From: a virus
Lineage: Duplodnaviria; Caudoviricetes
IMG/VR virus record: IMGVR_UViG_3300022930_000004
Location: 1 to 51,336 of that record
Strand: one strand, 5' to 3'
DNA length: 51,336 nucleotides
Shown here in pieces: positions 1,271-36,143 of the stretch (position 1 is the first letter of the stretch; each line of letters begins with the position of its first letter). The translations under genes were made by a program, and so were the position numbers. Below the pieces are notes generated by a model. The model saw only the letters and a program-made list of their open reading frames with translations, had not been told where the DNA came from and searched no databases.

Positions 1271-1378
1271 TATATTTGTAGTATAGTTAAACGGATGCGG
1301 CCACATTCAATAAAGACATTTTTAAAAACCTTATAGGGGGATTCTGGCCGGATGAACCTTATAAGGTTTTTTCATTTT
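1271..1378 (+). promoter_or_regulatory. Promoter and structured 5' leader (terminator-like hairpin with loop pseudoknot)
   Basis: TATATTTG 1271-1278; stem 1324-1335/1360-1371; CGGCCA 1298-1303 is complementary to loop TGGCCG 1345-1350. Confidence 0.65.
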
Positions 1379-2116
1379 ATGATAGGGATATATAAGATAG
1401 TTTCACCTTCCAGAAGAATATACATAGGACAAAGTATTGATATAGAGAGAAGGTTTGCGAAATACAAAAGGTACAGTCATTGTAAAAAACAAATAAGGCT
1501 TCATAGCTCGTTAATTAAATACGGATCTGAGAATCACTTGTTTGAAGTTATTGAAGAATGCGCTATTGACGAACTGAATAACAGGGAGCGTTTTTGGCAA
1601 GATTATTATGACGTTTTAAGTAAAAAAGGCCTTAACTGTATGCTGACAAAAAGCAGTGATAAATCTGGCAAATCCTCTCCTGAGTCAGTAGAAAAAATGA
1701 AAGCCAAATTGAAGGGTGTTAAAAGAAAACCTCATACTGAAGAATCTAAAATAAAAATTAGTCTAGCTATAAAGGGTAAAAAAAGAACAGAAGAAGCTAA
1801 AGCAAATATGAGAAAAGCATTCGCAAATAGGATGCCTACTTTTGGTTATAAGCACACAGAAGAAGCAAAGAGAAAGATTAGCGAATTAACAAAAGGAAAT
1901 AAACGTAATTTAGGCAGAAAACATACTTTAGCTAATAGGATAATGTGGGCTGAAGTTAGCGCCATTTCGCAAGGAAAAATGGTCTTGAATATGGAGACAG
2001 GAATTTACTACCCTGCTCTATCCCAGGCAGCAAAAATAATAAACGTACATTACAGTCATCTAGCAAGAATGCTTAAAGGAGATAGAAAAAATGTAACCTC
2101 ATTTATTTATGTATAA
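1379..2116 (+). CDS. Free-standing GIY-YIG homing endonuclease with NUMOD3-like repeats
   Basis: GIYKI..YIGQS..R motif and repeated H(T)EE.K.KIS motifs; start moved to ATG 1379 because 1352 lies inside the leader hairpin. Confidence 0.9.
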   Translation: MIGIYKIVSPSRRIYIGQSIDIERRFAKYKRYSHCKKQIRLHSSLIKYGSENHLFEVIEECAIDELNNRERFWQDYYDVLSKKGLNCMLTKSSDKSGKSSPESVEKMKAKLKGVKRKPHTEESKIKISLAIKGKKRTEEAKANMRKAFANRMPTFGYKHTEEAKRKISELTKGNKRNLGRKHTLANRIMWAEVSAISQGKMVLNMETGIYYPALSQAAKIINVHYSHLARMLKGDRKNVTSFIYV

Positions 2117-2172: not shown

Positions 2173-3435
2173 CTATGAAGTTACAGCAGTAAATAAACGT
2201 TTAAACGCTTCAGGGAAACGGATTACCAAGGCAACACGACCTTCCAAGCGAATTGTCACGATATTTTTTCCGAAGTTATCCTTGTGTTCGCTTGAGTAAG
2301 CGATCTCCATTGCTTTACGCTGAAAGATAGCTGCACCTCTTGCGAAGTCTCCGACAAGTCCTTCATTTTCATTAAACACGTTCGACCAGTAGATAGGGAT
2401 ACCTCCGATAGTCATAACCCCATCCGATCGTAATATGATTGGGTAAGTGTACTCGTCTGTATTTCCTTTGTTAATCAAAATTTCCATCCACTGGACAGGA
2501 GATAGCACTACTGCTGATGTAGCGCGCTTCAACATCCTAACTTCAGTTATGCCAGCCATAACTTTGTCTATTGCATTCGAGGCACTTGTAACACTACCTA
2601 AAGGTAAAGTTTGGAAGTCAGCCTGAGTCCATAAACCAAGGATAGCCGTATTGCCGCCAGCTCCTTTGTAGATTTGGTAATCCTCGAAGTCCAAATAAGC
2701 TTTCGGAAGCTCGTATGCAATCCATGCTCTAAACCCAACTAGATCCTCAAGCATTTCGTCACTGACGTCCAATAATCCTGCAATCTTCTGAACCAGAGCC
2801 TGTTCCACAGCAGAATCATAACCCAAATCAGGTTTTTGACCTCCTTCAGCAGTATAGCCGTAACCATCAGCATCTGGATCTACAGTGAATTGAACGAACT
2901 TGATTACATCAGAGATCGTAGGGAATACAGGGATAATGTCGCGGGCATGGAACTCATCATGACCAGGGCCTGTAACGGTGGTAAATTGTGGAGCTACGCC
3001 GCCTGTTGGCTTAAGCATTGCTTTTTCTTCAACTTCCATTTCAAGCTTACGACCTTTGAAGAATCCTTTGAGCAATCCTTCTCCTTCCTCTGTGGAAAGT
3101 TTTTCGATAATGAAGTCAGATACTCCTTTAGCGCGATCATTTACCTCTCCTACTTTAGCTCGGTTCAAAGTTTTAGTTACTTCAGCAAGATCAAGTTCGT
3201 ACTTATCAGCTAGCTCTTTCAAAGCAGCAGCGTTAGCATCAGTAATGCCTTTAAGTTCAGCCTCACGCTCAGCTTTCAGTTCTTCCTTCATTGCCTCAAT
3301 AGCTTCCTTAGCCGACTTCTCAGCTTGCTCTTTAATCAGTCCTTGCTCGTAAGCCGACTTTTCATCGAGGTATTTTTCTTTTTGATACTCCGACAGAGCC
3401 TCAAATTCTGATGGTGTTTTCTTTACGAATGACAT
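2173..3435 (-). CDS. Major capsid protein, HK97 fold, with N-terminal coiled-coil delta domain
   Basis: AEGGQKP, KIAGLLDVSDEMLED, GDF and F.KN.VTIRLEGR..L....P.AF motifs; follows the protease gene. Confidence 0.93.
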   Translation of the reverse strand: MSFVKKTPSEFEALSEYQKEKYLDEKSAYEQGLIKEQAEKSAKEAIEAMKEELKAEREAELKGITDANAAALKELADKYELDLAEVTKTLNRAKVGEVNDRAKGVSDFIIEKLSTEEGEGLLKGFFKGRKLEMEVEEKAMLKPTGGVAPQFTTVTGPGHDEFHARDIIPVFPTISDVIKFVQFTVDPDADGYGYTAEGGQKPDLGYDSAVEQALVQKIAGLLDVSDEMLEDLVGFRAWIAYELPKAYLDFEDYQIYKGAGGNTAILGLWTQADFQTLPLGSVTSASNAIDKVMAGITEVRMLKRATSAVVLSPVQWMEILINKGNTDEYTYPIILRSDGVMTIGGIPIYWSNVFNENEGLVGDFARGAAIFQRKAMEIAYSSEHKDNFGKNIVTIRLEGRVALVIRFPEAFKRLFTAVTS

Positions 3436-3446: not shown

Positions 3447-4274
3447 TTAAGTTAATAATAAACTAGACTTTAATTTTTGACTGACTTCTGTCGGGTCAAT
3501 TTTATCTTTATTTTCATTCAAGTTGTCATTCGACGGACTCTCTATGATTTCAAATTTAACAGGCAACGTTGGAGTTAACTCATTGCTGCCATTCAGAACG
3601 CAACTGATCTCAATCAATCCGGCCTCATATACGCAGTAGAAATAACCTCTCTCATCCGCCTTTTCAGGATTACCCAACATTGGATAAACCTTATTCCATT
3701 CAGCATAAGCTTCAGGGTAATCTTTGTCATTAAGGGCAAACTTAACGCTGATATATCTCATACCCACAGAATGTTGATCGATGTCTCCGTTCTTATACTG
3801 CTTGAATACAGACTCATTCATTTCTTTTTGGATCTCGCTATATCCAAACAAAGCCTGGGTTTTACCGTCTTTCTCAATCCCTAATTCAGACCATTTAATA
3901 TCCGATTCATATACCTCTAAGAATTTACCGACCTTAGCTGTGATCTGATGAATATGGTCATGAAGGTGAGATATCCGACTTGCATCTTTTTGCGCTAACG
4001 AGGCTTTAAAGCAGTTCTTCATATGAACGTCTTCATGAGAATCCATCCATAAATAAGAATTGCCGACTACAGTACGATAGATTACATCATCCGTATCTTC
4101 ATCATCTCTTTCGGCACCCATTGCTTTTGCGGCAAATCTCTTTACCTCGATGTCGATGCCATTATTCAAAATGAAAGGATCACAAGCTTTAATCTGAGCC
4201 TTTTTTAAGCTGATTATTTCTTTCTGATTATCAATCAGGTATTTGTTGCGCTCCTTAATTGTTTTGAATTCCAT
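3447..4274 (-). CDS. Prohead maturation protease (HK97 family)
   Basis: DSHEDV..F..S, HDH, HSVG (catalytic Ser) and LIEISCV..GSN motifs; directly upstream of the capsid gene. Confidence 0.8.
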   Translation of the reverse strand: MEFKTIKERNKYLIDNQKEIISLKKAQIKACDPFILNNGIDIEVKRFAAKAMGAERDDEDTDDVIYRTVVGNSYLWMDSHEDVHMKNCFKASLAQKDASRISHLHDHIHQITAKVGKFLEVYESDIKWSELGIEKDGKTQALFGYSEIQKEMNESVFKQYKNGDIDQHSVGMRYISVKFALNDKDYPEAYAEWNKVYPMLGNPEKADERGYFYCVYEAGLIEISCVLNGSNELTPTLPVKFEIIESPSNDNLNENKDKIDPTEVSQKLKSSLLLT

Positions 4275-7219: not shown

Positions 7220-7665
7220 AAACAACCGAACTACACAAAGAACTAGCCAAGCATCGTAAATTATTGCATCGTGCTGTAGGCAATAGGATTGTGCCTCACA
7301 TAAATTATCATCATTACGAGATCATAAGGATTATCGATGAGATAGAAAAATCTGAAAAAGAAACTAAATACGTTTTTGGATTTCCTTTAATTGGTGTCCC
7401 TGATAGCCATGGTGATATTATGAGTCATGATTTACTTGAAAAACTTAAGAACGCTCATCATGAATGGAACGAAACTCATGTATCCATTTCACCAATGAGT
7501 AATTTACCATCAATTAAAATGATGTATCATGATCAGGAAACTGAGGCCGGAAGAATGTTGTGTGAATCTTACCTAAAATCGGAAGATCTAGCAATTTTAA
7601 CTGGCAATTTCAATACTTCAACGTCAGCAGACGGAACACATTCAGACACTCATACATCAAAATGA
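7216..7665 (+). CDS. Hypothetical protein with a partial XkdF-like (phage head protease) segment
   Basis: VFG..PDSHGDIMS..LEK..H..MYH...G..CESYL resembles the XkdF N-terminal half; the later catalytic region is absent. Confidence 0.45.
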   Translation: MKTTELHKELAKHRKLLHRAVGNRIVPHINYHHYEIIRIIDEIEKSEKETKYVFGFPLIGVPDSHGDIMSHDLLEKLKNAHHEWNETHVSISPMSNLPSIKMMYHDQETEAGRMLCESYLKSEDLAILTGNFNTSTSADGTHSDTHTSK

Positions 7666-8975
7666 TTAAACTTTCAATCCTAATACCATCAGTACATACG
7701 AGATATAACACTTTCCTGCCTAAAATACAAGAGCAGATTTACGGTCAATACAACTCGATATCTGAATTTGATCAGTCACGGGTTGAGATCATAGTATTAA
7801 GCGATACGAAATCAATAATGTTGGGAGAAAAGCGTAATATTATGGTGGATATGGCTAAGGGTGAATACATCGTTTTTGTTGATGATGATGACTTAATTTC
7901 TGATGACTATATCACATCGCTGGTAGAAGCTACCAAATCGGGTTCAGATGTGATCACGTTTACTGCAATGGTATCTATAAATGGAGAATCACCTAAGCCT
8001 TGCTATTACTCAAAGGACAACAAGCACGACTTCAATAAACCAGATGCTTACTACCGTATTCCAAATCATATTTGCTGCGTGAAGAAGGAGGTTTCACTTA
8101 AATCCAGTTTCCCTTCATTGCTTAAAGGCGAAGATAGCGGATATTCTAAGCTTCTTATACGTCACCTTAATACAGAAACAAAGCTTGATAAGGTGCTTTA
8201 CCACTACAATTATAGTGACGCTACCACCGAGACGCAAGAACCCATTGCGTCGGGTATTAGGCGTAGAAATCAATCGCCGATTGTTGATGTAGTGATTATT
8301 TCCTGCGCTAAAAGCAGGAATCTTTACAATATGACGCAAAAAGCAATCGACACTTGCATCGCAGGCGCGAACTCCTTACCTGTTAATGTTGTCGTAGTGG
8401 AGCAAATTCCAGGCGTTAAGTATAAAAACGCGTCCGTTATTTACGGAGATAGGCTATTCAACTATAACGCTTCGGCAAATAAAGGCGCTAAACTCGGTTC
8501 TGCTGAGTGGATTGTCATATCTAATAACGATGTGGTGTTTAAATCTGGCTGGCTTCATTCATTGCTTGTCGCTAACCACCCGATAATGTCGCCTAAGTGC
8601 CCTAATGATTACAGACAAACTGATGTTACAGTCGATGAGATAGGAGATGTTAACGGTCGTAATTTTAGCGGATGGTGCTTTATGATCAAAAGATCATTGT
8701 ACGATCAGATAGGACAGTTTTCCGAAGATATGCGTTTTTGGGGCTCTGATGATGTGACGATTGAGCAAGTTAGATCTATAGGATTTTTACCTATGCTTGT
8801 TGTAGATTCCCTTGTGACTCATTTAGGCAGCACTACATTGGGGACTGTAGATCCAGCAACAAGGAACGATTTAACTTGGAAGGATATTAATACCTTTAAT
8901 GAGAAGTACGGCAAATCAAAGTTTGCGGATAATAAAGATTTTATAAATTGGAAAATTAAAAATGGAATTAAGTAA
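7662..8975 (+). CDS. Glycosyltransferase family 2 with two tandem GT-A domains
   Basis: LSILIPS..GEKRN..AKGEYIVFVDDDD..GEDS; second domain VDVVI..FNYNASANKGA..SNNDV..SGWCFMI..WGSDD. Confidence 0.9.
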   Translation: MIKLSILIPSVHTRYNTFLPKIQEQIYGQYNSISEFDQSRVEIIVLSDTKSIMLGEKRNIMVDMAKGEYIVFVDDDDLISDDYITSLVEATKSGSDVITFTAMVSINGESPKPCYYSKDNKHDFNKPDAYYRIPNHICCVKKEVSLKSSFPSLLKGEDSGYSKLLIRHLNTETKLDKVLYHYNYSDATTETQEPIASGIRRRNQSPIVDVVIISCAKSRNLYNMTQKAIDTCIAGANSLPVNVVVVEQIPGVKYKNASVIYGDRLFNYNASANKGAKLGSAEWIVISNNDVVFKSGWLHSLLVANHPIMSPKCPNDYRQTDVTVDEIGDVNGRNFSGWCFMIKRSLYDQIGQFSEDMRFWGSDDVTIEQVRSIGFLPMLVVDSLVTHLGSTTLGTVDPATRNDLTWKDINTFNEKYGKSKFADNKDFINWKIKNGIK

Positions 8976-9757: not shown

Positions 9758-10051
9758 ATGAAAAACAAACAAAACGTCCTAGATTGGGCTAAAGAAAAAG
9801 GAATCCTAGATAAAGCTACTCCTATCGCTCAGGCAGAAAAAACACTTGAAGAGGCTAATGAGCTTATCGAAGCCATAAAAGCAGACGACAAAGCAGAAAT
9901 CAAAGACGCTTTAGGCGACATAATGGTAACAATTATCATAGGCGCTGAAATGCAGGGATGGGATATTGAAGATTGCCTTCAAACTGCATACGATGTGATA
10001 AAAGGCAGGACGGGTAAAATGATTGATGGGCAGTTTGTAAAGGATAAGTAA
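9758..10051 (+). CDS. MazG-like nucleotide pyrophosphohydrolase
   Basis: WA..KG..Q..K..EEANEL..IKDALGD..AYDVIKGR.GKMIDG.FVK motifs. Confidence 0.88.
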   Translation: MKNKQNVLDWAKEKGILDKATPIAQAEKTLEEANELIEAIKADDKAEIKDALGDIMVTIIIGAEMQGWDIEDCLQTAYDVIKGRTGKMIDGQFVKDK

Positions 10052-10714
10052 ATGAACCCGTCAATAGCTATAGCAATCTCAACCAGAAATAGGTCAGAGT
10101 CGTTCTGGTTTTGTCTTAAAATGATTAGGCAATTCACAAAGCTTGATGCTGATATATTCGTGGTTGACGACAATAGCGAGACTGCATATTATAACGCTGA
10201 TTTTACCTTTAATGAAAGGGCTGGAATTAGCAAAGTAAAGAATAAATGCTTAGAACTAACATCAAGATACGACCATGTATTTTTATTTGATGATGATACT
10301 TATCCATTGTCATTTAATTGGTGGATGCCATATGTAAAATCAGGCGCTCATCATTTATCATACAGCTTCAGCAAACCGATCTGGCAGGATGAGAAATTCA
10401 AATACCATCATTACCCGAACGGTTGCATGTTGTATTTTACCAGGGAATGCATTGATACAGTTGGCGGTTTTGATACGAAATTCAACAACAAGTACGAACA
10501 CACCGAATTAAGCAGGCGTATTTATAACGCTGGACTTACATCGCATCCCGCTATGGACTTAGTAGGATCATCTGAATACATTTACTGCATGGATCAGGAT
10601 AATGCAATACAGCGCAGTTTTAGCGATAAAGAAATGAAGCAGTCACTCAGAGAAGGATACGCGCATTTTGAGGCGACAAAGTTTAGGAAAGAATTTATAG
10701 AGTTTAGATCATGA
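10052..10714 (+). CDS. Glycosyltransferase family 2
   Basis: IAISTRNR..VVDDNS..GISKVKN..FLFDDD..VGGFD..YEH motifs. Confidence 0.88.
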   Translation: MNPSIAIAISTRNRSESFWFCLKMIRQFTKLDADIFVVDDNSETAYYNADFTFNERAGISKVKNKCLELTSRYDHVFLFDDDTYPLSFNWWMPYVKSGAHHLSYSFSKPIWQDEKFKYHHYPNGCMLYFTRECIDTVGGFDTKFNNKYEHTELSRRIYNAGLTSHPAMDLVGSSEYIYCMDQDNAIQRSFSDKEMKQSLREGYAHFEATKFRKEFIEFRS

Positions 10715-10905: not shown

Positions 10906-10931
10906 AGGCCACCTTTTTAGGGTGGCTTTTT
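10906..10931 (+). terminator. Intrinsic terminator
   Basis: gccacc / ggtggc stem followed by a T tract. Confidence 0.8.
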
Positions 10932-10948: not shown

Positions 10949-12091
10949 TTACAAAACAGGCGGAGCGCTAATCAACTGCCATGTACCTGAAGCACCTAAC
11001 GTAGCCCTAACATATATTGCTCCGCCCAACGTAATCGAAGGACACATTACTCTATATCCAACAGGGGTGTTTGGGTATGTAGCGTTTAAAGTCGTTTTAG
11101 ACAGACCAACCGCAGCATTATTGACTACCATTCCAGGAGTGGCAGTTATTTGAGCTTGCAGATTCTGTAATGCTACCAAAAGACTATTTGAGGCCACTAT
11201 TGGAGTGTTCGTTCCAGTCACATACCCTGTAAGCACTGAATTGAGTCCGAATGCGTCAAGTATTCCGTATCCTGATAAAGTAGTAGGCTTGCCGCTTATT
11301 TCAGAGAAAGGTACATTTCCAGATGCGCGGTATAGTAAGTCGGATTGAGATTTCGTGCTGTAAGCGGATAGGTCTGGTGAATATCCGATTGGCTTATACA
11401 ATCCATCCGCAACCGCTTTAGTAGAATACTGCGACTTCTGAGACAACCAAACCGGATCAGATTCAGATATCAGTCTCCCATTTATCGCTGTAATAATTGA
11501 GTCTAAACGAACAAGCAATCCAGTTATTTGATTCTGAGTATGTGTATGTGCAGATGAAGCAAACGTTGTCGGCTTACCTGTTACCTCAGCCCACGATGGA
11601 ACGTAGCCAATAGGCCTATATAACCCAGCATGATTACCCCATGAGAATGCGGTGTTTCCATTGGTGAAGTACGATGAGTTTATGCCTTTAACGTAAGAGC
11701 TAACTGTTGGGTCTGTTTCTGTTTTAATGTACCCCGCTAAAGAATGATCTCCCCATGCAAAAGCGTTATTCCAGTTTGATATATTAGAGGTAGTTATAGC
11801 CTTGATCCATGATGAAACGCTTGGATCAGATTCAGTGAAAGACTGTAAATACCTGGCATCTGCACCGGACTGAGTGATAAACCCATAATCAGCTATAGAT
11901 ATACGGCCTATCCATCTGTAAGTAGATGAAACTACCAATAAGCTATCTGATGCAGCGCCAATAGGCAAATTCTGAACCCGAAGCCAATTACTCTGCGTTC
12001 TGTATGGTAAAATGTAGTTTGATGTTGCTGGTTGAGCGAATGAAGACACGTATAGTGTCACGAGAAGCAATAGGGAGATTAACTTTTTCAT
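10949..12091 (-). CDS. Tail-fibre-like repeat protein with N-terminal Sec signal peptide
   Basis: MKKLISLLLLVTLYVSSFA-Q signal; E(S/T)DP, N.AF.WG.H and GKPTT(LSGYGI) fibre-shaft repeats. Confidence 0.7.
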   Translation of the reverse strand: MKKLISLLLLVTLYVSSFAQPATSNYILPYRTQSNWLRVQNLPIGAASDSLLVVSSTYRWIGRISIADYGFITQSGADARYLQSFTESDPSVSSWIKAITTSNISNWNNAFAWGDHSLAGYIKTETDPTVSSYVKGINSSYFTNGNTAFSWGNHAGLYRPIGYVPSWAEVTGKPTTFASSAHTHTQNQITGLLVRLDSIITAINGRLISESDPVWLSQKSQYSTKAVADGLYKPIGYSPDLSAYSTKSQSDLLYRASGNVPFSEISGKPTTLSGYGILDAFGLNSVLTGYVTGTNTPIVASNSLLVALQNLQAQITATPGMVVNNAAVGLSKTTLNATYPNTPVGYRVMCPSITLGGAIYVRATLGASGTWQLISAPPVL

Positions 12092-12528
12092 TATTGATTA
12101 TTTATTGCAAGACTAGCAGGTAATGAAAACCACCAGCCCTGATTATCGACTATAATTTTTATATACAACATACCGCTTCCGATATTTGGAGCTACGACAA
12201 TAAACCTGTCAGTAGCATTAGGGTAATCTGCGTTTAAATCGTCATTGAACAACGGTTCAGTACCCATGTATGTAGCGCCTTTGTTTTGTGACCCCGTGCC
12301 GTCACCCCCTCCTTTATAAAAAAGCTTTGAACTGAGCCATGATTCAAGGTCATCTTTATTGTCGAATACTTGACCGTCACACTCAACCTCTTCTATCTTT
12401 GCTGAGATCCCTACCATGGAAACGCCTTCAGGATCTCCGTGATTAACAGTGATAGATCCCTTTTGGTATTCCATTTTATTTATCGAAAAACTGTTGTCTT
12501 TCGTAACAATTCGTATTTTTATTGCCAT
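12091..12528 (-). CDS. Putative virion accessory/adaptor protein sharing its C-terminal domain with the downstream fibre
   Basis: LNADYPN..F.VVAPNI..GMLYIK..G.W aligns with LNATYPN..YRVMCPSI..GAIYVR..G.W; 1-nt overlap. Confidence 0.6.
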   Translation of the reverse strand: MAIKIRIVTKDNSFSINKMEYQKGSITVNHGDPEGVSMVGISAKIEEVECDGQVFDNKDDLESWLSSKLFYKGGGDGTGSQNKGATYMGTEPLFNDDLNADYPNATDRFIVVAPNIGSGMLYIKIIVDNQGWWFSLPASLAINNQ

Positions 12529-12611
12529 GAGAGTAATATATACACAAATATATCATTATTGTTACACTTAACGTAAGAATATCTATTGTATATTGCGAGT
12601 GTAAAATAAAA

Positions 12612-13268
12612 ATGAATATGAAAGTATTAATAGCATGCGAATATAGCGGAACAGTAAGGGACGCATTCATAAAAAGAGGTCATGATGCGATAAGCTGCGA
12701 CTTATTGCCAACAGACAAACCAGGGCCACATTTACAAGGAGATGTGAGTTTTATGTTAGATAAAGATTGGGATTTGATAATAGCTCATCCACCTTGCACA
12801 TATATGAGTAATTCGGGCGTTAGGTGGTTAGTAAAAGACGGCAAGCCATACAATCCTAATAGATGGATTCAGTTGAAGTCGGCTGTATACTTTTTTAACT
12901 TATTTGCTGAACATACATGTAGCAAAATAGCAATTGAAAACCCAATCCCACATAAATACGCGGCACTTCCTTTTGAAACAATGATTATAGAAGGCGAAAG
13001 AATCCCTTTTCAGCAAAAAGGAATAGGCAAACATACCCAAACAATTCAGCCTTATGGATTTGGTCACCTGGAAAGTAAAAGAACTTGCTTATGGTTAAAA
13101 GGCTTACCTACTCTGAAAGAAACAAACAATGTCTACGATGAAATGATGCAACTTACCTATGCTGAAAGAAACAAAGTTCATCATTGCCCGCCCGGTCCTG
13201 ATCGTTGGAAAATTCGTTCTACAACTTATCAAGGTATTGCTGATGCAATGGCTGAACAGTGGGGTTAG
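12612..13268 (+). CDS. DNA cytosine-C5 methyltransferase (compact phage type)
   Basis: VLIACEYSG..RDAF..GHD..SCD, DLIIAHPPC (catalytic PC), ENP, K.TCLW and RS.TY.GIA.AMA.QWG motifs. Confidence 0.8.
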   Translation: MNMKVLIACEYSGTVRDAFIKRGHDAISCDLLPTDKPGPHLQGDVSFMLDKDWDLIIAHPPCTYMSNSGVRWLVKDGKPYNPNRWIQLKSAVYFFNLFAEHTCSKIAIENPIPHKYAALPFETMIIEGERIPFQQKGIGKHTQTIQPYGFGHLESKRTCLWLKGLPTLKETNNVYDEMMQLTYAERNKVHHCPPGPDRWKIRSTTYQGIADAMAEQWG

Positions 13269-14626
13269 CTCGTAAGACCACCACCAGCAGTCCCTTCGTA
13301 AACACTTCTTACCGTAGTCCTTCCGGCTGCGGTATAGTATTCTTTCATATGCGCTAATCCTGTTTCGCCATACTTAAGCGCAACACGAGCCTCATCAAGA
13401 GATATAACGCCTGCCTCGATCAATGGTTTAAGGTAGTCGGCTACCTCTTTCATGTTGACAGCCATTTCCGGCAATTGAGTGTAATCTAACTCAATGATGA
13501 TATCGCCGAATCCTTTACCAACAAACCTGGTTAATGCTTCACCTATCACTTCGCATATAGGCGCAACAGCATCGTATATCAATTGCTTTACTGCTGTTCC
13601 CTGGTTGTTGCTGGTTGATGCTTTCTGATTGTGGTATTGAAGCGGAACGTGGTAAGCCCTGTAGATATCCTCCTGATTTGCGCCTACCAATTCTATAAGC
13701 TGTAAGTCTGCTATCGGTAAGCCCATAGACTGCCAAGCTAAGCTGATAGATGAAGCGAACACTCGTGCCATTTCATCATCAGAACGCCTTGCTGCGGACA
13801 TTTTATCGTGCAACTGTTTCTTTTGATCTGAATCGAGTTGATCTTCTTTGTCACGAGGCGATAGGACGCCAAATACGCCACCGTTTTTGGCTTGCTTACT
13901 AGATTGCGTCTTTCCCTCTTTAATCGTTCTGAGCGACTCTAAATAGGCTCTAAGCGGAGAAACTCCGTATAGGTATTCAAAGTTACGATCTATCGGTGCT
14001 GGATTAGCTGTTTTAAGGTGGTAAATCTCGTCTTTAGTGAATGGGGTTTTGTTGGTGTTCTCTAAGATGTACCCTACAATAGGATCTAATAGATTATCAG
14101 AATCACCGTTTATGGTCATGTTAGGAAAACAGAACAGTTCCGACATGGTTTTTCCTGTCTGATTTCCGTACCAGTACGTATTACCTTTAAGTAAATAGGT
14201 CAATGCCGTAGTCCATAACCACTGACTGCCTGTTTGGTATGGATTAGGGTTCATCAGCAAATCCAGTAGCTTAGGATTATCTACCTCTTCGACTGCATGT
14301 AACTTCAGTAAGTAAGACTGAACCGGATCGTGCTGTTCAAGTGATTTAGCTTGTTGGTATTTCTTTTTGTCTTTAATCTTTTTAAAGCTGTATAGCTTAG
14401 GGGTGATCTTTTTACAGATAATATCAGTTACCTCGTATACAGCTCCGATTGTTTTGAAAGCATCTTCATAGTCCGCATGATCCGGATTAATAGTCGGCAA
14501 TCCCTTATTCATGAAAGCGACAAGGCTGTCAAGTTGTTTAGCGTAACTTCCTGCCAGCTTTGAAGCCAACTGCTCATTTACCCTCTTATCAATAGTTGAA
14601 CTGAATACCTTGTCTAATAAACCCAT
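13265..14626 (-). CDS. Portal protein (HK97 family)
   Basis: LL..PNPYQ..LL.GN.Y, YGVSPL, I..AYHVP and DEAR..L motifs; downstream of TerL. Confidence 0.92.
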   Translation of the reverse strand: MGLLDKVFSSTIDKRVNEQLASKLAGSYAKQLDSLVAFMNKGLPTINPDHADYEDAFKTIGAVYEVTDIICKKITPKLYSFKKIKDKKKYQQAKSLEQHDPVQSYLLKLHAVEEVDNPKLLDLLMNPNPYQTGSQWLWTTALTYLLKGNTYWYGNQTGKTMSELFCFPNMTINGDSDNLLDPIVGYILENTNKTPFTKDEIYHLKTANPAPIDRNFEYLYGVSPLRAYLESLRTIKEGKTQSSKQAKNGGVFGVLSPRDKEDQLDSDQKKQLHDKMSAARRSDDEMARVFASSISLAWQSMGLPIADLQLIELVGANQEDIYRAYHVPLQYHNQKASTSNNQGTAVKQLIYDAVAPICEVIGEALTRFVGKGFGDIIIELDYTQLPEMAVNMKEVADYLKPLIEAGVISLDEARVALKYGETGLAHMKEYYTAAGRTTVRSVYEGTAGGGLTS

Positions 14627-15520: not shown

Positions 15521-17035
15521 TTAATCCCAGCCGAAGGAGACTTTTTTTGCTTTCTTTGCCAACTCAAATCGCTCTCTCATCATAAACATATCCATTAAAT
15601 CCGGAGAATCGCCATTCAGTTTAGCCTTCATTGCTCCCTTTTTAATTATACACAATTTGCCGTCTTGGTCTAGCTTGTCCTTTTTTATGGCTTTTCTCTC
15701 GTACATGAACCTTTGTCGGATGGTCATCTTATCGTCATACATAGAGTTAGCTACTTTCTCAGATACTTTATATTCACCTGCAGCAACTGATTTGCCAGAC
15801 CTGTAATAGCATTGTGCTTTTATGTGTTCGTATCGCTCTGGCTTCTTTTTGTCGTTCACAGAATCAGGATCAGGCATAGGAGTTCCGCCGTTATGAAAAG
15901 GAACAGCGCCTGGTATAAATCCCTCGACAAAACCACCAACCCCATCGTTATCATAACATATGTTTCTGTTCTGAACCTTCAAGTCCTTAGCCATGCCAGT
16001 AATAGCGTCCACCACTTCTTTACCGTTAGACTTGTCGATCACTTTTATATCGACTAATTCCTTTCCATCCCACCCGCCTATTATAAACTTGTTAGAGCCT
16101 TCCAAAGCGATATCTGCGGTTATATACCTCTCGTCCCTAATAATGTCGTATACGTTGTTAAACATGCCTAAAAACGAAGGGTAATCATATATATCATTAT
16201 CTGATAATACAACTTTCCAGTTTGAGTGCAATAAAGCGGCCTGAACGTCCTTGTCTTGCGCTAATAAGTTACCCAAATAAGCCGGGTTTTCTTTAAGTAA
16301 TTCTTTGTTATCGTAAATACTTCCGCCTATGAATGTTACCGATTTAACAAATTCATTAGGGTCTATTCCAGATTTCTCAACAACGTCTCCTATTATATGC
16401 CATCCTTTCTCTATAACCTCTTGCTTACTGTCTCCCCATATGTAGTTATCGCCATCCACAATGAGGTATCTTAATACACCTCTTCTTTCTGGTATAGCAT
16501 AGCCTGTTTCCTGATCTATCCACCAGGATATGAACTCAGCTACCCATGAATCAGGATCAGGATTGCATGTCGCTCTAACATATGGGTTAACGCCGCAAAC
16601 AGATCTATTACGGGTAAGCAAATAGAAGAACATTTTCTTAGTGAAGTGAGTAAGCTCATCAAAACCTATGAAAGGAATCTGAGATCCTTGCCAGTCATAA
16701 ATATTTTTCTCGTATTCAAGGTGTGAGAATTTAAGCTTTGACTTTTCGAATTGCCATTCAAGATTAGATTGCCTAGGTGTAGCTCCCAACAGGTTGTACA
16801 ATCCCATAGACGTATCCCATAATCCTCCTTCGTTTCTAATCTGAGGATTAGTCCTACGAAATATAACAGACCCGAATCCCTCAACATCTTTATGTCTTAT
16901 CGGTTCAAGAAGCAAAGAGAATGTTTTGCCAACACCAGCAGCTCCACCTCCGATACATATATCAGCAGCAGAAGAGGCGAACTCTAGCTGGTATCCATCT
17001 TGTGGCCGGATTCTTTTTACCGTTGTTTCTTCCAT
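15521..17035 (-). CDS. terL: Terminase large subunit
   Basis: Walker A GGAAGVGKT, Walker B IGFDELTHF, coupling motif ATCNP, nuclease ADIA..D..GVG..SPDLMD. Confidence 0.95.
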   Translation of the reverse strand: MEETTVKRIRPQDGYQLEFASSAADICIGGGAAGVGKTFSLLLEPIRHKDVEGFGSVIFRRTNPQIRNEGGLWDTSMGLYNLLGATPRQSNLEWQFEKSKLKFSHLEYEKNIYDWQGSQIPFIGFDELTHFTKKMFFYLLTRNRSVCGVNPYVRATCNPDPDSWVAEFISWWIDQETGYAIPERRGVLRYLIVDGDNYIWGDSKQEVIEKGWHIIGDVVEKSGIDPNEFVKSVTFIGGSIYDNKELLKENPAYLGNLLAQDKDVQAALLHSNWKVVLSDNDIYDYPSFLGMFNNVYDIIRDERYITADIALEGSNKFIIGGWDGKELVDIKVIDKSNGKEVVDAITGMAKDLKVQNRNICYDNDGVGGFVEGFIPGAVPFHNGGTPMPDPDSVNDKKKPERYEHIKAQCYYRSGKSVAAGEYKVSEKVANSMYDDKMTIRQRFMYERKAIKKDKLDQDGKLCIIKKGAMKAKLNGDSPDLMDMFMMRERFELAKKAKKVSFGWD

Positions 17036-17109: not shown

Positions 17110-17622
17110 CTACTTTCTGCCATTATCTGGCAGCTCAAATATTGTTACGCTGGCTTGGTTTTTCTTCTGGTCATTGTCTTTCTCAAACAACCCTAAGTGC
17201 TTAGATAATGCTTCTAATGCGCGAAGCTTATCATGCAGCTTTATTTTTCTGTTAGTCCCAAGTTTTTCTCCGACTCTACTTACCTCATCAAACGATTCTA
17301 TTGCTGCTATTGCAGCCGCAGTGTCATCGTCTATTTCATCAATAGACCTCATACCTCCGTCGATAGTTAATATGTTTCTTACGTCACTAAAGGCAATTTT
17401 CCTGTACTCATCTAAAACTCGCTGTTTGCTTATGCCTGATTTTTCGCTGTATTCTGCCTTTAATTCAGAGATATAGCCCTCAACTTCCGGCTCTTGTAAT
17501 AAATTATGGGCTATCTGTCTTGATGTAGCCTCAGAATACCCAGCGTAAATAGCTGATTGACTGCCGTTTAGAGTTTCAAAATACCTGTCTGCAAATCTTT
17601 TCTTTTGTTCTGTTAAGGCCAT
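17110..17622 (-). CDS. terS: Terminase small subunit
   Basis: LTEQKKRF...Y...N..QSA..AGYS...A...L and KIKLHDK..AL..L.KHLG.F motifs. Confidence 0.93.
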   Translation of the reverse strand: MALTEQKKRFADRYFETLNGSQSAIYAGYSEATSRQIAHNLLQEPEVEGYISELKAEYSEKSGISKQRVLDEYRKIAFSDVRNILTIDGGMRSIDEIDDDTAAAIAAIESFDEVSRVGEKLGTNRKIKLHDKLRALEALSKHLGLFEKDNDQKKNQASVTIFELPDNGRK

Positions 17623-22359: not shown

Positions 22360-22941
22360 TTAGTTTTTAACCTCCATTCTCATACCTTCAGATATAAGCA
22401 CCTGTATCTCTTCATGACTTCGCTTTATATCCGACTTCATAGATTCCAATATCGTTATCGTAAAAGACACATCAGTAACTTGCTTAATATACCACCGCTC
22501 GCCTTTATTTAGCCAAACCTCACCTCGTTTAGGCATAATAACCGATGTATCCGGTATTTGTTCCTGCTTCTCTCTAAAAGCCGGATCAAAAACTTTAACT
22601 TCCGGCAATGCATCAGCTATACAAGGCTGAATGCTGAACTTATGAGAATTCACTAAATGAGATACCGTCAAATCATCCATTGCTTTTTCTTCTTCACCTA
22701 TCGAAACTGAAATATATCTGCCATACAGAAAAGCCGGATAACGGCACATTTTGACTGCTTTTTCTAAATAGATTTCCTCTGCTGATTGTTTGGTGCTTTT
22801 AGGCGGTGTTTTGCCTTCTTTAAAAGCCTGGTCAATCAACTGCATGATACCTCGTTTTAAGGCTGTGCGGTCGTCAATCAGAACGTCGATAACTTCGTTC
22901 AGGTCGGAGTATGTGATTGAGTGGTTACGTTGTTTTGCCAT
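22360..22941 (-). CDS. Hypothetical protein
   Basis: 193-aa ORF coupled to the upstream gene. Confidence 0.7.
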   Translation of the reverse strand: MAKQRNHSITYSDLNEVIDVLIDDRTALKRGIMQLIDQAFKEGKTPPKSTKQSAEEIYLEKAVKMCRYPAFLYGRYISVSIGEEEKAMDDLTVSHLVNSHKFSIQPCIADALPEVKVFDPAFREKQEQIPDTSVIMPKRGEVWLNKGERWYIKQVTDVSFTITILESMKSDIKRSHEEIQVLISEGMRMEVKN

Positions 22942-23330
22942 TACACAATACTTTTAAATCTAAACCCCTTACATTTATATCCCTTAGTTATTGATTCAGA
23001 AATATTTCCAGAACCTATTCCTGTAATTAAAGAGGCTTCATTTATAGAAGGATAAACACATATTAATTTATCATTCCAGTATTTCCCAACAATAACTGTG
23101 TCAGCCCTTTCTTTTGATAAATCCCCTATCCTTTTCGGATTTATTTTGGCGTGTTTCTTTCTAATCTGAAAACCATTTGCTGATAAATCTTCGCCGCTAA
23201 TAACTCTATTTACCTGCGGTTGGTGTGATTTTATTGCTCTAGCGCATTCGCTTATGCTAGAGAACTCTTGCAAAAAATAACCCTGATTATCAAAAAGCAA
23301 TACTTCTATTTTTTCCCTTCCCATTACCAC
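22941..23330 (-). CDS. Tandem NUMOD1-like DNA-binding domain protein with no nuclease domain
   Basis: Two repeats of (F/Y).SI.E..R/L....I.......GF. Confidence 0.7.
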   Translation of the reverse strand: MVMGREKIEVLLFDNQGYFLQEFSSISECARAIKSHQPQVNRVISGEDLSANGFQIRKKHAKINPKRIGDLSKERADTVIVGKYWNDKLICVYPSINEASLITGIGSGNISESITKGYKCKGFRFKSIV

Positions 23331-23545
23331 GATAACTTAAACTGTTTATACTCTGTTACCTTTGTCCTCTCAACCTTAAACCCTTCCGTTTCCAGCATTT
23401 CAATAGTCTGATCTGATGGATTAGAAATGTGAACATGCCTTACCTTACTAAACGTACGCTGCAATCTGTTCATTTCTGCAATACATTTTCTGTACTGCGA
23501 TGATGCGGATAGTTCGCGCATCTTTTCTGCTAGTGGTTGTTTCAT
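23324..23545 (-). CDS. Hypothetical protein
   Basis: Coupled ORF. Confidence 0.55.
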   Translation of the reverse strand: MKQPLAEKMRELSASSQYRKCIAEMNRLQRTFSKVRHVHISNPSDQTIEMLETEGFKVERTKVTEYKQFKLSW

Positions 23546-24189
23546 GATATTTCTTCGTTATTATTTGTTTCCAATTCTGCTTCCCATGCTTCACTGAATT
23601 CACGATCAGCAAATAAAGAAGCTAATCCTGTTACCTGGCATAATCTCAATACCTCATCTGCATCCATACCTAAATGCTTAGCTATCTTAGCATCATTCCA
23701 GTTACGTTTTTTCAGGTGCATAACTATCTCAGACATAGATTCTACGTTGTGTTTACCACGGGCACGATTGTGACGAACTGTAGCGGCCATACGATCTTCA
23801 AGCGCCTCACGATCTCCATTAATAGTGACTACAGGAACGTAACCAAAAACACGTGAATTAACAGCCTGATGTTCCTTAATAACTCTTGTCCTATGGAATC
23901 CATCAACTACCTCTCTGCCTACTTCATTACCCATTGTAACTACTGGCTGCGTAAGGCCGTCAGCTTCTATTGATAAAGCCAGCAAGTTTTGCTCTGTTGT
24001 TGCTGTGGCATTAGGGTTGTAGCTGTTGGCTTGAACGTTATCAGACTTAACCCACTGAACCAAATCTACAGGTTCATTCTTGAACGGGCTAATCTCATGA
24101 ATCTTTAACCTTAATTCGTTTATCGCAGAAACCTTCTCATTTAAAGGTAAATCTGCGATTTGTTTTAATATTTCATCAATTTGTGACAT
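23542..24189 (-). CDS. ibrB: IbrB/YbdM-like ParB/Srx-domain protein
   Basis: EPVD.V.WV..V.AN.YNPN..L..SI..DG.TQP..VVDGFHR..ATVRHNRARGKH..IAKHLGM..DEVLRL motifs. Confidence 0.85.
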   Translation of the reverse strand: MSQIDEILKQIADLPLNEKVSAINELRLKIHEISPFKNEPVDLVQWVKSDNVQANSYNPNATATTEQNLLALSIEADGLTQPVVTMGNEVGREVVDGFHRTRVIKEHQAVNSRVFGYVPVVTINGDREALEDRMAATVRHNRARGKHNVESMSEIVMHLKKRNWNDAKIAKHLGMDADEVLRLCQVTGLASLFADREFSEAWEAELETNNNEEIS

Positions 24190-24536
24190 ATTTTATAGCT
24201 TTTTAAAATTTTAAATCCTAGTTTCAAGTAAATTGGTAGCGCCATATTTGAGCTATTAACCTTCCATGACTGCTCAGGTATATCGTTGTATAGAGCCGAA
24301 AATACACCTTTATTTCTGAATGACGGCCTTGTATAGGCATAAAGTATTGTATCATTTTTGTGACAAATAAAGCCAGTCATTACACCTTCCGAATAAGCAA
24401 AGTACCAATATTGATCGCCTGACCATTTAATAAACTCACCCATTTCAGAGTAAAACACATCACTAATCAGCAATACACCTAATTCACCTGCTATAAAATG
24501 AGCCGACTGACTTTTTACTATTCGTATATTTTCCAT
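24165..24536 (-). CDS. GNAT family acetyltransferase
   Basis: YT.P.FRNKGVFS.L acetyl-CoA motif A and A..IY.KLGF motif B. Confidence 0.8.
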   Translation of the reverse strand: MENIRIVKSQSAHFIAGELGVLLISDVFYSEMGEFIKWSGDQYWYFAYSEGVMTGFICHKNDTILYAYTRPSFRNKGVFSALYNDIPEQSWKVNSSNMALPIYLKLGFKILKSYKICHKLMKY

Positions 24537-25723
24537 TCCGTTCTACGTTTACGCATTAAATTCATGTATTTATTGTATGCAGATGACTTGGTAACTCCAA
24601 ACCCTAAAGTCTTACAATACCAATCATTACGGAGCAGCGTTTTGGCTATCTGCCTCCAAGCAGGAATCTTACCTAACTGCTCCAATTTGTAATCGCCCTG
24701 ATCCGGTATTCCATCTGGATAACCACGTTCACGATACCACTTGATATAAACAGCTATTTTATTCTTGTAATGCTCTGATGTTGTTGGCGGCATTGAGTCC
24801 AATATGAAGTTGCTGAATGATTCCCATGTATGACCTTCTGGTAATGATACATTAGCATTCCCCAATATATTACCTCGTTCCCTGCTGTATAAAGCAGCTC
24901 CATTTATACCGGACATACGGGCTACGAATTTAGACCACGTAACCGGCTCTATGATTTGGTAAATCCAAAGGTTCTTTCTGGCTTCATCACCGAATGGCTC
25001 ATCTATTCTCATTTGAGAAACTGACAATCCAGCCATGTGCATGCGATCATAGACCTTATTGTATGAATTACCGGATTTAGCTATGTAAGTCCAAATATCA
25101 TCTACCTGCCAATCGTAAATCGGGTACACATTCCAAATATTATCTACTGCATTAGTTGTAAACATTTTTCCGTCATAACGGGCTACGTCTTCCCTGGCTA
25201 TAGCTCTGAAGCGGTTCAATGATTCCTGCGCTCTAATACCCACAAATGAAGCTGTTTCCTCCCCTTCGCTATACCATTTAGCGAACAGCGGAACGAATTC
25301 TTCAAAAGTGATTCCTGAATAATAGAATGGATATTTGTATGCATTAGATTTTTCGTGCTTCTGTCTAGTCCATAGATTTTTCTTTCTTTCATCCCATGAA
25401 CGCCATAACGGCTCATAAGCAGAACAAGCAGAACAAGTTTCTACTTCCAATGCGATCCAATGAAGATCAATCCATTCTGCGTACTTAGTAGTCATTTCGT
25501 CTATGTGTTCAATAGTCAAATCGAACTGACATTCCCAATCTATAAACAGAAGCCCTATTTTCCTATTACGCATCTTAGCCTCTTCCAACACTAAATGAAG
25601 CATAACCGTACTGTCTTTACCTCCTGAAAAAGACAAGTATATTTTATTAAAATTGTCGAAGGTGTATTTTATTCGCTCCTTTGAAGCCAACAATACGTCT
25701 GTGTCTAATAATCTTTTTCCCAT
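24518..25723 (-). CDS. ibrA: IbrA/YbdN-like PAPS-reductase-family (PP-loop) protein, DUF3440 type
   Basis: SFSGGKDS PP-loop, FIDWE, GIRAQESLNR, YPIYDW..DIW, YD.M..AG..QMR and ND..C..LGF motifs. Confidence 0.87.
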   Translation of the reverse strand: MGKRLLDTDVLLASKERIKYTFDNFNKIYLSFSGGKDSTVMLHLVLEEAKMRNRKIGLLFIDWECQFDLTIEHIDEMTTKYAEWIDLHWIALEVETCSACSAYEPLWRSWDERKKNLWTRQKHEKSNAYKYPFYYSGITFEEFVPLFAKWYSEGEETASFVGIRAQESLNRFRAIAREDVARYDGKMFTTNAVDNIWNVYPIYDWQVDDIWTYIAKSGNSYNKVYDRMHMAGLSVSQMRIDEPFGDEARKNLWIYQIIEPVTWSKFVARMSGINGAALYSRERGNILGNANVSLPEGHTWESFSNFILDSMPPTTSEHYKNKIAVYIKWYRERGYPDGIPDQGDYKLEQLGKIPAWRQIAKTLLRNDWYCKTLGFGVTKSSAYNKYMNLMRKRRTEWKIYE

Positions 25724-32239: not shown

Positions 32240-32762
32240 CATGAAAATAATTTCAACAGGCGCAGCAGATATACTGCTGCTGGATTTGCCGGAGGGGTCA
32301 AGAGAACTTAAGGTCTTCAATGATGAAAAGCCATATCTTTCATTCTTTGAAGGACATACTACGCCTAGAATTTATCTCCCTGAAGGCTACAACTACACCA
32401 TTTTAGACGTGTCTGATAAAATGACAGAGGAGCAATGGCAATCGATACTGCCTAATTATGGAGGTAAGATATTCGACTATGATCTTAAGCATTATAATAG
32501 CTATCCAGATTATGAATTTGCAAATCACCCATTTGAAAGTAAGTTCTTCGGTACAGCTATAGAATCCGGGCACTCACTTCTCAAGTCCCAAGGCATATTG
32601 CTTGAGAATCCTTTTGGAGATAAAAGACCAAAAGATTGTTTTTATGCAGAAAATAAAAATGGTTATAGAGAGAAAATTTACGATGGATTTCAAAAAAAAT
32701 GGGATGAATACCAATCCAAAGTCAAAAACCCACTGGTAATTAAAGCAGAGAAAATCACTTAA
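32232..32762 (+). CDS. Hypothetical protein
   Basis: 176-aa ORF. Confidence 0.7.
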   Translation: MSNMKIISTGAADILLLDLPEGSRELKVFNDEKPYLSFFEGHTTPRIYLPEGYNYTILDVSDKMTEEQWQSILPNYGGKIFDYDLKHYNSYPDYEFANHPFESKFFGTAIESGHSLLKSQGILLENPFGDKRPKDCFYAENKNGYREKIYDGFQKKWDEYQSKVKNPLVIKAEKIT

Positions 32763-33342
32763 CTACCCCGTAAACAATCAATCCACCCAAAATAGCCCCA
32801 GCAAAAAACTTCCATCCGGTTTTCTTTTGTTGGGGTTTTACATAAAACGATTCCAGTTCTACGACTTTCAATCCTTTAAATGAATGATTAGCATTCAACC
32901 TGAAATCTTTACCTATAGAATACCTAACTGTATCTACAGCAGACAAAGCCATACGGGTACTGTCAGGCCACGATGTAATATTAGCTGTATAATCCTTGGT
33001 TTTAACTGCTGCATTCCTTATATCGCTTCTAATTGAGTCAGTATTTACGACTACGGTATCAATACGCCATTCGACTACAGTTTTAATGCCCGTTTTAGCA
33101 CCTTTTTTCACCATTTCAGCTAGTTTAGCATCTTTTACGGCTAATTCATGCCTTAACATTTCAACATCTTCAGCGGCAAAAACAGCTTTGCTTACTGATC
33201 CGTCCGGCTCTTTTCGCAAAGTGTCGTTTCTTGCGGTTGATATTTGATCCACATCAGACTTTAAAGGTGAACCTTTGCGCCAAAACAAGGCGACGACCAA
33301 TAATGCGATTACGATATACGGGATACTATTTTTTAGTGTCAT
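32755..33342 (-). CDS. Putative spanin-like lysis protein
   Basis: N-terminal TM, coiled coil, beta-rich middle and C-terminal hydrophobic helix; last gene of the lysis cassette. Confidence 0.55.
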   Translation of the reverse strand: MTLKNSIPYIVIALLVVALFWRKGSPLKSDVDQISTARNDTLRKEPDGSVSKAVFAAEDVEMLRHELAVKDAKLAEMVKKGAKTGIKTVVEWRIDTVVVNTDSIRSDIRNAAVKTKDYTANITSWPDSTRMALSAVDTVRYSIGKDFRLNANHSFKGLKVVELESFYVKPQQKKTGWKFFAGAILGGLIVYGVVK

Positions 33343-35177: not shown

Positions 35178-35178
35178 T

Positions 35179-35289: not shown

Positions 35290-35317
35290 AACTTTAGTTT
35301 AATGGTGTAACAATCCT

Positions 35318-35385
35318 TAAAGTTAAGCAATATTTGTAACAATCAGGTTACATAAGAAAAGCTAGTGTTTTATCTCGTATGTTTG
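35318..35385. promoter_or_regulatory. Divergent promoters with central GTAAC box
   Basis: Minus-strand TAACTTTA 35318-35325; GTAAC-aatcag-GTTAC 35336-35351; plus-strand TATGTTTG 35378-35385. Confidence 0.7.
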
Positions 35386-36142: not shown

Positions 36143-36143
36143 A

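Follow-up and report, generated by a model that had tools for sequence, protein, structure and literature searches.

A tail-fibre-like protein with a predicted Sec leader and its leaderless neighbour share a C-terminal domain in a complete siphophage genome

The IMG/VR record IMGVR_UViG_3300022930_000004 is the genome of an uncultured 51-kb tailed phage (Caudoviricetes) with a Bacteroidota host; it carries direct terminal repeats and is rated 100% complete. The whole record (51,336 nucleotides, G+C content 37.6%) was analysed and is called the window hereafter; according to PHROG and Pfam scans it has the layout of a siphophage, with the structural genes on the minus strand. We describe here two adjacent genes of that strand, which encode a protein of 145 amino acids and, downstream of it, a fibre-like protein of 380 amino acids. 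The two genes overlap by one base in the sequence TAATG, which holds the stop codon of the first and the ATG of the second. A previous reading of the letters alone, made without database searches (the sequence-only reading), had proposed that the larger protein is a tail fibre with a signal peptide, matured and possibly glycosylated in the periplasm and docking on the virion at lysis, or else an exported receptor decoy, and that its partner is a cytoplasmic protein sharing its C-terminal domain. The positions of both genes and their coupling on one strand were confirmed (Table 1).

The 380-residue protein starts with MKK, continues with a 12-residue Leu-rich core, LISLLLLVTLYV, and then reads S at position -3, F, A at -1 and Q20 at +1, as judged by eye. 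The charged n-region, an uncharged core of 7-15 residues and the small residues at -1 and -3 that characterize substrates of Sec and signal peptidase I (SPI) are all present, as is Gln at +1, and the leader was also called by the crude in-house heuristic that we used throughout. Gln at +1 is a phylum-specific feature of SPI substrates in Bacteroidota, where the host cyclises it to pyroglutamate (PMC5837995, PMC10653852). The protein shows the same leader-then-Gln arrangement as these Q-rule substrates, its own cleavage and cyclisation being predicted. Five Q-rule genes, reported to be of unknown function, have been noted in phages of Porphyromonas gingivalis (PMC10367356), and, unlike the 380-residue protein, they are not described there as fibre-like. 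Among the 64 gene products of the window, this is the only one for which the heuristic gives a leader ending in A, G, S or C followed by Q; where hydrophobic N-termini occur elsewhere in the window, they are those of holin-like membrane proteins. There is no lipobox, as residues 1-30 contain no Cys, and a lipoprotein resembling T5 Llp was discarded for this reason. A weakly hydrophobic anchor of the signal-arrest-release type was dropped on judgement, the core being rich in Leu.

Compared with L001, a fragment of 95% identity, codons 1-157 of the fibre gene show 28 synonymous and 8 non-synonymous changes. Within codons 1-20, four synonymous changes were found against a single conservative one (L10F), and the leader is therefore translated and constrained by purifying selection.

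The C-terminal domain that the sequence-only reading had seen in both proteins is real, although divergent. The two copies align with 33% identity over 42 amino acids (BLASTP, E 9e-5), profiles built from relatives match the 145-residue protein with E-values of 3.7e-7 and 8.9e-7, and a 143-sequence profile does so at 2.4e-9. Residues L98, Y102, Y122 and W133 of the smaller protein are invariant in a 35-row alignment (A4), and a profile scan of all six frames of the window found the domain in these two open reading frames (ORFs) only. We then compared a profile of the domain (alignment A1) with 1.84 billion representative proteins, which yielded 300 relatives at E<=1e-3, among them 63 at E<=1e-10; the best 150 of the 300 were listed. 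In 149 of these 150 no more than 12 residues separate the end of the domain from the C-terminus, in proteins whose lengths range from 59 to 1459 residues.

Leaders were called by the heuristic in 61 of the 150 listed relatives, with A, G, S or C followed by Q in 53 of the 61, and a further two can be recognised by eye; of the 63 strongest matches, 39 carry one. As the relatives are mutually related, such counts are not independent. Predicted signal peptides are present in many homologues, which the sequence-only reading had suggested surveying. The sequences of these leaders diverge, while the charge, the core, the small residues at -1 and -3 and Gln at +1 are kept, a combination that is the mark of a targeting signal and not of a structural helix. 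When leader state was mapped on a tree of the domain (FastTree, 70 columns, 140 of the 150 rows, the ten rows shorter than 100 amino acids being left out), at least 33 changes were required, compared with 46.1 +/- 3.1 in label shuffles, a number of switches that is indicative only. By this fewest-change count, leader-bearing and leaderless N-termini seem therefore to have been swapped onto the domain many times.

Taken together, the leader is very probably a working Sec/SPI signal and the 380-residue protein exported, in agreement with the sequence-only reading. It would be surprising if the protein were not exported at all and its hydrophobic N-terminus were instead a buried oligomerisation or attachment helix of a cytoplasmic fibre, or were skipped by a downstream start. 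Such a reading could draw on the AlphaFold2 (AF2) model, in which residues 2-16 are simply a helix. It has to face the selection on the leader, the relatives whose leaders vary in sequence and keep their architecture and their Gln at +1, and the specificity of this Gln for SPI substrates of the phylum (PMC5837995, PMC10653852). A downstream start was rejected on the TAATG overlap, on the selection on the leader and on the position of the next Met, residue 321; on this point the sequence-only reading, which had named such a start as evidence against itself, was not contradicted.

What the shared domain does is suggested by its position and by modelling. In some leaderless small relatives the N-terminus is of the baseplate-connector type (phrog_677, E 2.5e-15), which places the C-domain at the distal end. 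Modelling the fibre as a homotrimer, an approach put forward in the sequence-only reading, was carried out with three copies of residues 296-380. All three runs scored 0.89, whereas the highest score among the three controls was 0.00; contact agreement between runs was at least 96% and the predicted local distance difference test (pLDDT) at least 89. In calibration this mark was reached by 20 of 30 proteins solved as pairs and by 1 of 23 single chains, figures that apply roughly, the present job having three copies and its own alignment. The interface includes residues 304-319, 344-351, 357-364 and 370-380; both the neck helix and the best-conserved positions (L335, Y360, W371 and the ISAPP stretch at the end) lie in it. 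Because of its terminal position and of a trimer model whose interface holds the conserved residues, we consider the domain to be probably a C-terminal trimerisation knob, analogous to the multiplexin and foldon units. Alternatively, it may be a conserved glycan-binding tip. The virion docking through this domain that had been proposed earlier is not supported, in view of its terminal and distal location and of the modelled homotrimer.

The comparison with known trimerisation units is one of function and not of family membership. Like the knob of the predicted trimer here, the trimerisation domain of the multiplexin collagens XV and XVIII is a small unit that terminates trimeric fibres, some of them collagen-like, at their very C-terminus, and the foldon of T4 fibritin is likewise a small C-terminal trimerisation unit. 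The fold-search lists obtained with the two C-domain models are weak and overlapping, with a best Z of 4.8 for any chain; collagen XVIII/XV domains occur in both, far below significance (9bnb, Z 3.9 and 4.3; 3n3f, Z 3.7 and 3.8). VIA-align against 48,161 chains gave no Z>=5 for either model, and a PDB sequence profile of the domain gave 0 hits at E<=10, that is, no sequence similarity to multiplexin or foldon. No name was obtained from Pfam, PHROGs or NCBIfam (E<=1), nothing from BFVD with Foldseek at E<=1e-3 and nothing from the ESM Atlas at >=0.9. In tblastn against 50,697 phage records, no match was found for the window copy at E<=1 or for that of relative P0212 at E<=0.01. The C-domain is an unannotated family. 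We also considered whether it directs cargo to the type IX secretion system (T9SS). The C-terminal domain (CTD) of such cargo, type A or B, was not matched in NCBIfam at E<=1 or in Pfam at E<=0.1, a very divergent CTD being able to escape these searches, and the same domain closes the leaderless 145-residue protein; type IX cargo was therefore rejected.

The knob closes proteins of very different kinds, its conservation across unrelated shafts being 55-67% in alignment A1, with one row at 42%. Long relatives carry enzyme domains of the tailspike type: among the 37 scanned, Pfam matches at E<=1e-5 were obtained for five of the 25 with a leader and five of the 12 without, namely pectate-lyase-like beta-helices, GDSL and SASA esterases, BNR, YadA-head and DUF5907. 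It also ends collagen-like proteins (P0111 and one in L005); the L005 gene (7212-8162 of that locus), like P0111, combines a leader, a long collagen-like Gly-X-Y shaft and the same knob. At the other extreme stand minimal relatives made of leader, N-domain and knob only (P0136, P0144 and a 127-residue protein of L006).

Between the N-domain and the neck, the 380-residue protein is built as a fibre shaft. Its motifs were counted earlier exactly as they occur: ESDP87, ETDP125 and ESDP210, NNAFAWGDH108 and NTAFSWGNH146, GKPTT172 and GKPTT267, LSGYGI272, and one DSL and one DSI. The fibre-like character of the body is borne out by PHROG tail-fibre families, the shaft matching phrog_22284 (E 1.2e-17) and phrog_9729 (E 2e-13); the PHROG families matched number 16. 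No other of the 60 proteins scanned in this complete genome matches a tail-fibre PHROG. With tblastn against cultured phages, the repeats alone match, in 25 records and over at most 43% of the query; these include annotated tail fibres of cyanophages and Alteromonas phages, reached through the repeats only. The pLDDT of the shaft is low in the monomer model. Two close homologues are 94% (P0001) and 82% (P0002) identical. A Pfam scan did not find Peptidase_S74 (PF13884) in the protein, and a fibre with an S74 intramolecular chaperone was rejected since the domain is missing from the C-terminus; PF13884 is present in some proteins that share the repeats and are otherwise different.

The leader is followed directly by a domain some 50 residues long. 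A profile built from 15 seeds found it in 25 proteins or ORFs of the set studied, in 24 of them immediately after a hydrophobic leader; in the remaining one the called start of the gene falls within the leader. An Asp-Ser is present in all 15 seeds, and in 14 the next residue is L, I or V, which completes the O-glycosylation sequon of Bacteroidota, D-(S/T)-(A/I/L/V/M/T), as given in PMC8550257. The 380-residue protein has two such sequons, DSL49 and DSI197, the first being the invariant Asp-Ser of the N-domain. In the relatives, the 53 leader-bearing mature proteins contain 1.39 times the number of sequons expected from composition shuffles (174 versus 125.4), and the 89 leaderless ones 0.69 times (111 versus 161.5); at least one sequon occurs in the first 70 residues in 45 of the 53, compared with 18 of the 89. 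This suggests a contrast in sequons between leader-bearing and leaderless proteins, among rows that are mutually related. The N-domain is also a better candidate for docking than the shared C-domain.

The 145-residue partner has only a faint PHROG match and no Pfam family, and its AF2 model has a mean pLDDT of 71. A homologue with 67% identity lies on a related contig of 50,279 bases, and a homologue is found directly upstream of the fibre gene in L001. No significant homology was found between its N-terminal part and other small relatives (domain E 1.4).

The pair is an autonomous two-gene unit fenced by genes of the opposite strand, with a DNA methyltransferase gene on one side and, on the other, a block of 11 plus-strand genes that converges on the fibre gene. 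The sequence-only reading had seen a separate unit between portal and protease; its autonomy stands, whereas the methyltransferase and the 11-gene block also lie in that interval and the protease match is weak. Upstream of the pair, at least 95 nt at the divergent intergenic region are identical in L001, and the adjacent fibre coding DNA differs there at 36 of 157 codons; by this comparison the intergenic DNA looks like a strongly constrained regulatory region. It contains TATATTTG, which fits TAnnTTTG, the Bacteroidota -7 consensus; as the two strands of the window together have 77 copies of this motif, the candidate element is weak evidence alone. A sigma-70 promoter scan of the window was not above shuffles (8 found, 8.7 expected). 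The cassette probably has its own promoter. Beyond the fibre gene, a G+C-rich hairpin lies within a minus-strand RNA fold of -16.8 kcal/mol (z -2.0; read by eye), and it was not listed by a terminator scan of the window. A blastn search with the locus gave no match in phages.

Relatives of the pair were located by protein (two loci) and by profile (four) in viral contigs, with three more in metagenome contigs, one of which is probably from the same phage as L005; a word-index search with residues 310-380 returned four proteins. The context was read for eight loci. In L001, the same 145-then-380 pair is found as in the window. In all five loci with enough context (L004, L005, L006, L007 and L012), the gene with the C-domain ends the series of long genes, small multi-pass membrane proteins being encoded next, and in four of the five an endolysin-type domain follows downstream (muramidase, M15, amidase_3 and M15). 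In the sister phage L006, a tail gene 52% identical to the 368-residue gene of the window is directly followed by two leader-bearing C-domain genes. The corresponding slot of the window (35178-36143), between the GDSL-like tail gene and the holin-like genes, contains only short ORFs of at most 78 residues. Because this slot holds two C-domain genes in L006 and only short ORFs here, the comparison suggests that the cassette moved from the fibre slot, or was lost there, and now lies in the head region.

Several of these loci carry C-domain genes in adjacent pairs. In L007, proteins of 143 and 170 residues follow each other, neither with a leader; in L006, proteins of 434 and 127 residues both have one; and in L012 a leaderless protein of 1001 residues is followed by one of 287 with a lipoprotein-type leader. 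This 1001-residue protein is tailspike-like and ends in a divergent knob; the 287-residue protein (L012 5329-6192) has the same N-domain and knob, with a lipobox L-T-G-C in place of the SPI leader. Leaders are also found on the upstream neighbours in L004 (GDSL, 627 residues) and L005 (941 residues). The phage of L005 encodes an integrase (PF00589, E 1e-9).

The distribution of the domain bears on the idea that the gene is a moron of bacterial type, a phage-carried adhesin or glycan-binding factor that alters the host surface and has no role in particles or exclusion. Bacteroidota make many secreted, phage-tail-like fibrous surface proteins, and the shaft repeats occur in leader-bearing proteins with bacterial-type domains (PF13884, PF07603, PF09603, PF26696) as well as on contigs of megabase size, such as the 3.5-Mb contig of P0007. 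The literature adds two parallels. Bdellovibrio exports and displays mosaic adhesive trimer (MAT) fibres, phage-fibre-like trimers with modular tips (PMC10769870), and the Q-rule genes of P. gingivalis phages have been proposed to modify the outer membrane (PMC10367356). MAT fibres are, however, products of bacterial genes for prey recognition, whereas the 380-residue protein is phage-encoded and hardly any of the bacterial genomes searched contain its C-domain. In 401 sampled genomes from the phylum of a Paraprevotella metagenome-assembled genome (Bacteroidota), the C-domain was found weakly in one (L014, G204:C21), as a 463-residue ORF that ends in a divergent knob (E 6e-10 with a broad profile) and is possibly the remnant of a prophage. 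When 185,579 species genomes were scanned with a pattern, a single weak locus was obtained. Within the genomes searched, the domain looks phage-borne rather than bacterial. Moreover, related phages have the gene in their fibre slot, and no integrase was found among the 60 window proteins scanned with PHROG and Pfam, so there would be no lysogen to convert. We regard a moron of this kind as improbable.

A stronger competitor, which we hold to be possible although rather unlikely, is that the exported trimer acts in the envelope of the infected cell, through superinfection exclusion or receptor masking, and never enters a particle. It would keep further phages, or the progeny of the cell, from the infected cell and its debris, and its tip domain would be the one common to the cytoplasmic neighbour. 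T4 Spackle and T5 Llp are phage-encoded exclusion factors with a signal peptide or a lipoprotein signal that act in the envelope of the infected cell, as exported phage proteins usually do. They are small and globular, unlike a repeat fibre of 380 residues with tailspike-enzyme relatives. An autonomous unit with a conserved upstream region and opposite-strand flanks would suit such a function, as would the lipoprotein-type variant of L012, the anchor-like leaders of some relatives and the recurrence of leaderless-upstream, leader-bearing-downstream pairs (in the window with L001, and in L012). On the other hand, the same type of gene occupies the canonical fibre position in L004-L007 and L012, and the L007 pair lacks a leader on either gene. 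The C-domains of the pair are also too dissimilar, at 33% identity, to fit one receptor well, and the strong conservation of the knob across unrelated shafts is not that of typical receptor tips. Furthermore, without the outer-membrane translocation signal sought above (T9SS CTD, E<=1), a periplasmic trimer could not reach a receptor on the surface.

We favour, at a probability of roughly 40% for the whole chain, a fibre that is routed through host Sec, matures in the periplasm and joins the virion late as an appendage. Its leader would be cut by SPI at SSFA/Q, the slash marking the cleavage site, and leave Gln as the mature N-terminus, as in most exported Bacteroidota proteins, and its C-terminal knob, also present on the 145-residue protein, would keep three chains in register; both steps have good support. 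With moderate support, the fibre would then fold in the periplasm, possibly with a glycan on DSL49, would meet the cytoplasm-built particle only once holin lesions and lysis merge the compartments, and would attach through its N-domain as an accessory side fibre. The 145-residue protein would not leave the cytoplasm and would form a small trimer there that bears the same knob, perhaps as a partner on the virion side.

An appendage of the virion is favoured by the position of related genes in the fibre slot, by the existence of relatives of the tailspike type, by the lack of any second fibre-like protein in the genome, and by the annotation of Cellulophaga phage phi18:3 (NC_021794). That annotation labels three proteins, gp085, gp086 and gp087, as structural or tail components 'based on experimental MS/MS proteomics analysis'. 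Like the 380-residue protein, they have SPI-type leaders, ending S/Q or A/Q. They match PHROG virion-structural and tail families, and their adjacent genes form a cluster that stands apart from most structural genes and immediately precedes those for lysis. The parallel has its limits, as phi18:3 is a cultured podophage and not a siphophage, its three proteins have neither the C-domain nor a matching shaft, and the GenBank record is silent on their leaders.

Several observations weigh against a periplasmic route to the virion. The leader heuristic is crude, and cleavage is predicted. The phi18:3 support is a GenBank annotation of proteins without the C-domain, and purified virions can carry contaminants. 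We know of no mechanism for late docking and of no identified virion receptor for the N-domain. The cassette is remote from the tail genes and probably under its own promoter, which also suits a non-structural accessory gene. The lipoprotein-type leader of the 287-residue L012 relative (LFILTG/C) would tether it to the membrane, and a few relatives (P0129, P0155) have anchors without an obvious cleavage site, which would be membrane-tethered and not particle-joining. All fold matches of the knob have Z <5, and trimerisation depends on one model-based prediction for a job unlike the calibration set. Finally, the sequon count of the 380-residue protein is at chance (2 versus a shuffle mean of 1.14, P 0.31), so that what remains of the glycosylation proposed earlier is the location of DSL49 on the invariant Asp-Ser and the richness in sequons of the leader-bearing relatives.

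Textbook assembly of tailed phages is wholly cytoplasmic. We found no literature on Sec-exported tail fibres of tailed phages among open-access papers and bioRxiv, and a survey of phage targets of diversity-generating retroelements reports signal peptides to be absent in phage proteins (PMC6199706). If a fibre has to cross the inner membrane before it can function, then either assembly includes a late step of a new kind outside the cytoplasm, or fibre parts have been turned into a new type of phage factor that acts in the envelope. It is conceivable, though doubtful, that tailed phages of Bacteroidota send an entire class of fibres and tailspikes through Sec, with pyroglutamate at the N-terminus, an O-glycan on the Asp-Ser of the N-domain, docking at lysis and the leaderless neighbour as adaptor. 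If such fibres are on virions, host-range prediction, engineering and virion proteomics would need to take into account that receptor-binding proteins may lose a signal and be glycosylated by the host, with consequences for Bacteroidota phages of gut and marine groups. The locus offers handles for such studies: an N-domain with an invariant candidate glycosylation site, an unannotated trimerisation knob in at least 300 representatives, from 59-residue stubs to tailspike-like enzymes of 1459 residues, and natural leader-bearing and leaderless pairs on the same knob.

Table 1. Features of the gene pair and of the surrounding genome (window coordinates; a slash marks predicted cleavage)
Feature	Coordinates	Strand	Basis or remark
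380-residue fibre-like protein	10949-12091 (including stop)	-	ORF, fibre PHROGs, homologues
Sec/SPI signal peptide, residues 1-19	12035-12091	-	predicted cleavage SSFA/Q
Leader-coupled N-domain, residues 20-72	11876-12034	-	~50 residues; invariant Asp-Ser (DSL49)
Fibre shaft, residues 73-303	11183-11875	-	repeats, PHROG tail-fibre families
Neck helix (304-316) and C-domain (~320-380) of 380-residue protein	10952-11182	-	pLDDT 91-96; predicted trimerisation knob
145-residue partner protein	12091-12528	-	ORF; without leader: beta-rich N-part, Gly-rich linker GGGDGTG, C-domain
C-domain of 145-residue protein (~residues 93-145)	12094-12252	-	BLASTP, profiles; pLDDT 92-95
Divergent intergenic region upstream of 145-residue gene	12529-12611	-	conserved in L001
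Candidate Bacteroidota -7 promoter element TATATTTG	12545-12552	-	16 nt before ATG of 145-residue gene
G+C-rich hairpin	10907-10931		between convergent fibre gene and plus-strand block; T-run on plus strand only
DNA methyltransferase flanking the pair	12612-13268	+	opposite strand to the pair
Portal	13265-14626	-	PF04860, E 2.2e-38
Large terminase	15521-17035	-	PHROG/Pfam
Small terminase	17110-17622	-	PHROG/Pfam
Candidate prohead protease	3447-4274	-	Peptidase_S78, E 0.004, below cut-off (weak)
Major capsid protein	2173-3435	-	PHROG/Pfam
Head-tail adaptor, start of tail module	50756-51268	-	PHROG/Pfam
Tape measure	41258-44473	-	PHROG/Pfam
GDSL-like 368-residue tail protein, end of tail module	36144-37250	-	PHROG/Pfam
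M15 endolysin	33592-34035	-	PHROG/Pfam

The head, tail and lysis genes of the window are listed in Table 1; the closest full-length terminases are those of Bacteroides phages, at 34.5% identity. Upstream of the M15 endolysin gene, at 34037-35177 (minus strand), three small membrane proteins of the multi-pass type are encoded in a row, and a 195-residue protein with an N-terminal anchor at 32755-33342 (minus strand), downstream of it. They have no family matches and are probably lysis genes of the holin or spanin type.

The plus-strand block that faces the fibre gene includes two family-2 glycosyltransferases, at 7662-8975 and 10052-10714 (PHROG E 6.6e-99 and 2e-52), together with a MazG-like pyrophosphatase at 9758-10051. 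The glycosyltransferases may act on host glycans, and hence on the possible glycan of the exported fibre, or on phage DNA. Elsewhere on the minus strand, a gene for a ParB-like nuclease-domain protein (23542-24189) adjoins one for a PAPS-reductase-like protein (24518-25723; PHROG E 2.6e-63 and 1.3e-87), a pairing that is often tied to DNA modification. A homing endonuclease of the GIY-YIG type is encoded beside the capsid gene at 1352-2116 (plus strand), and an HNH-like ORF lies in the replication region at 22941-23330 (minus strand).

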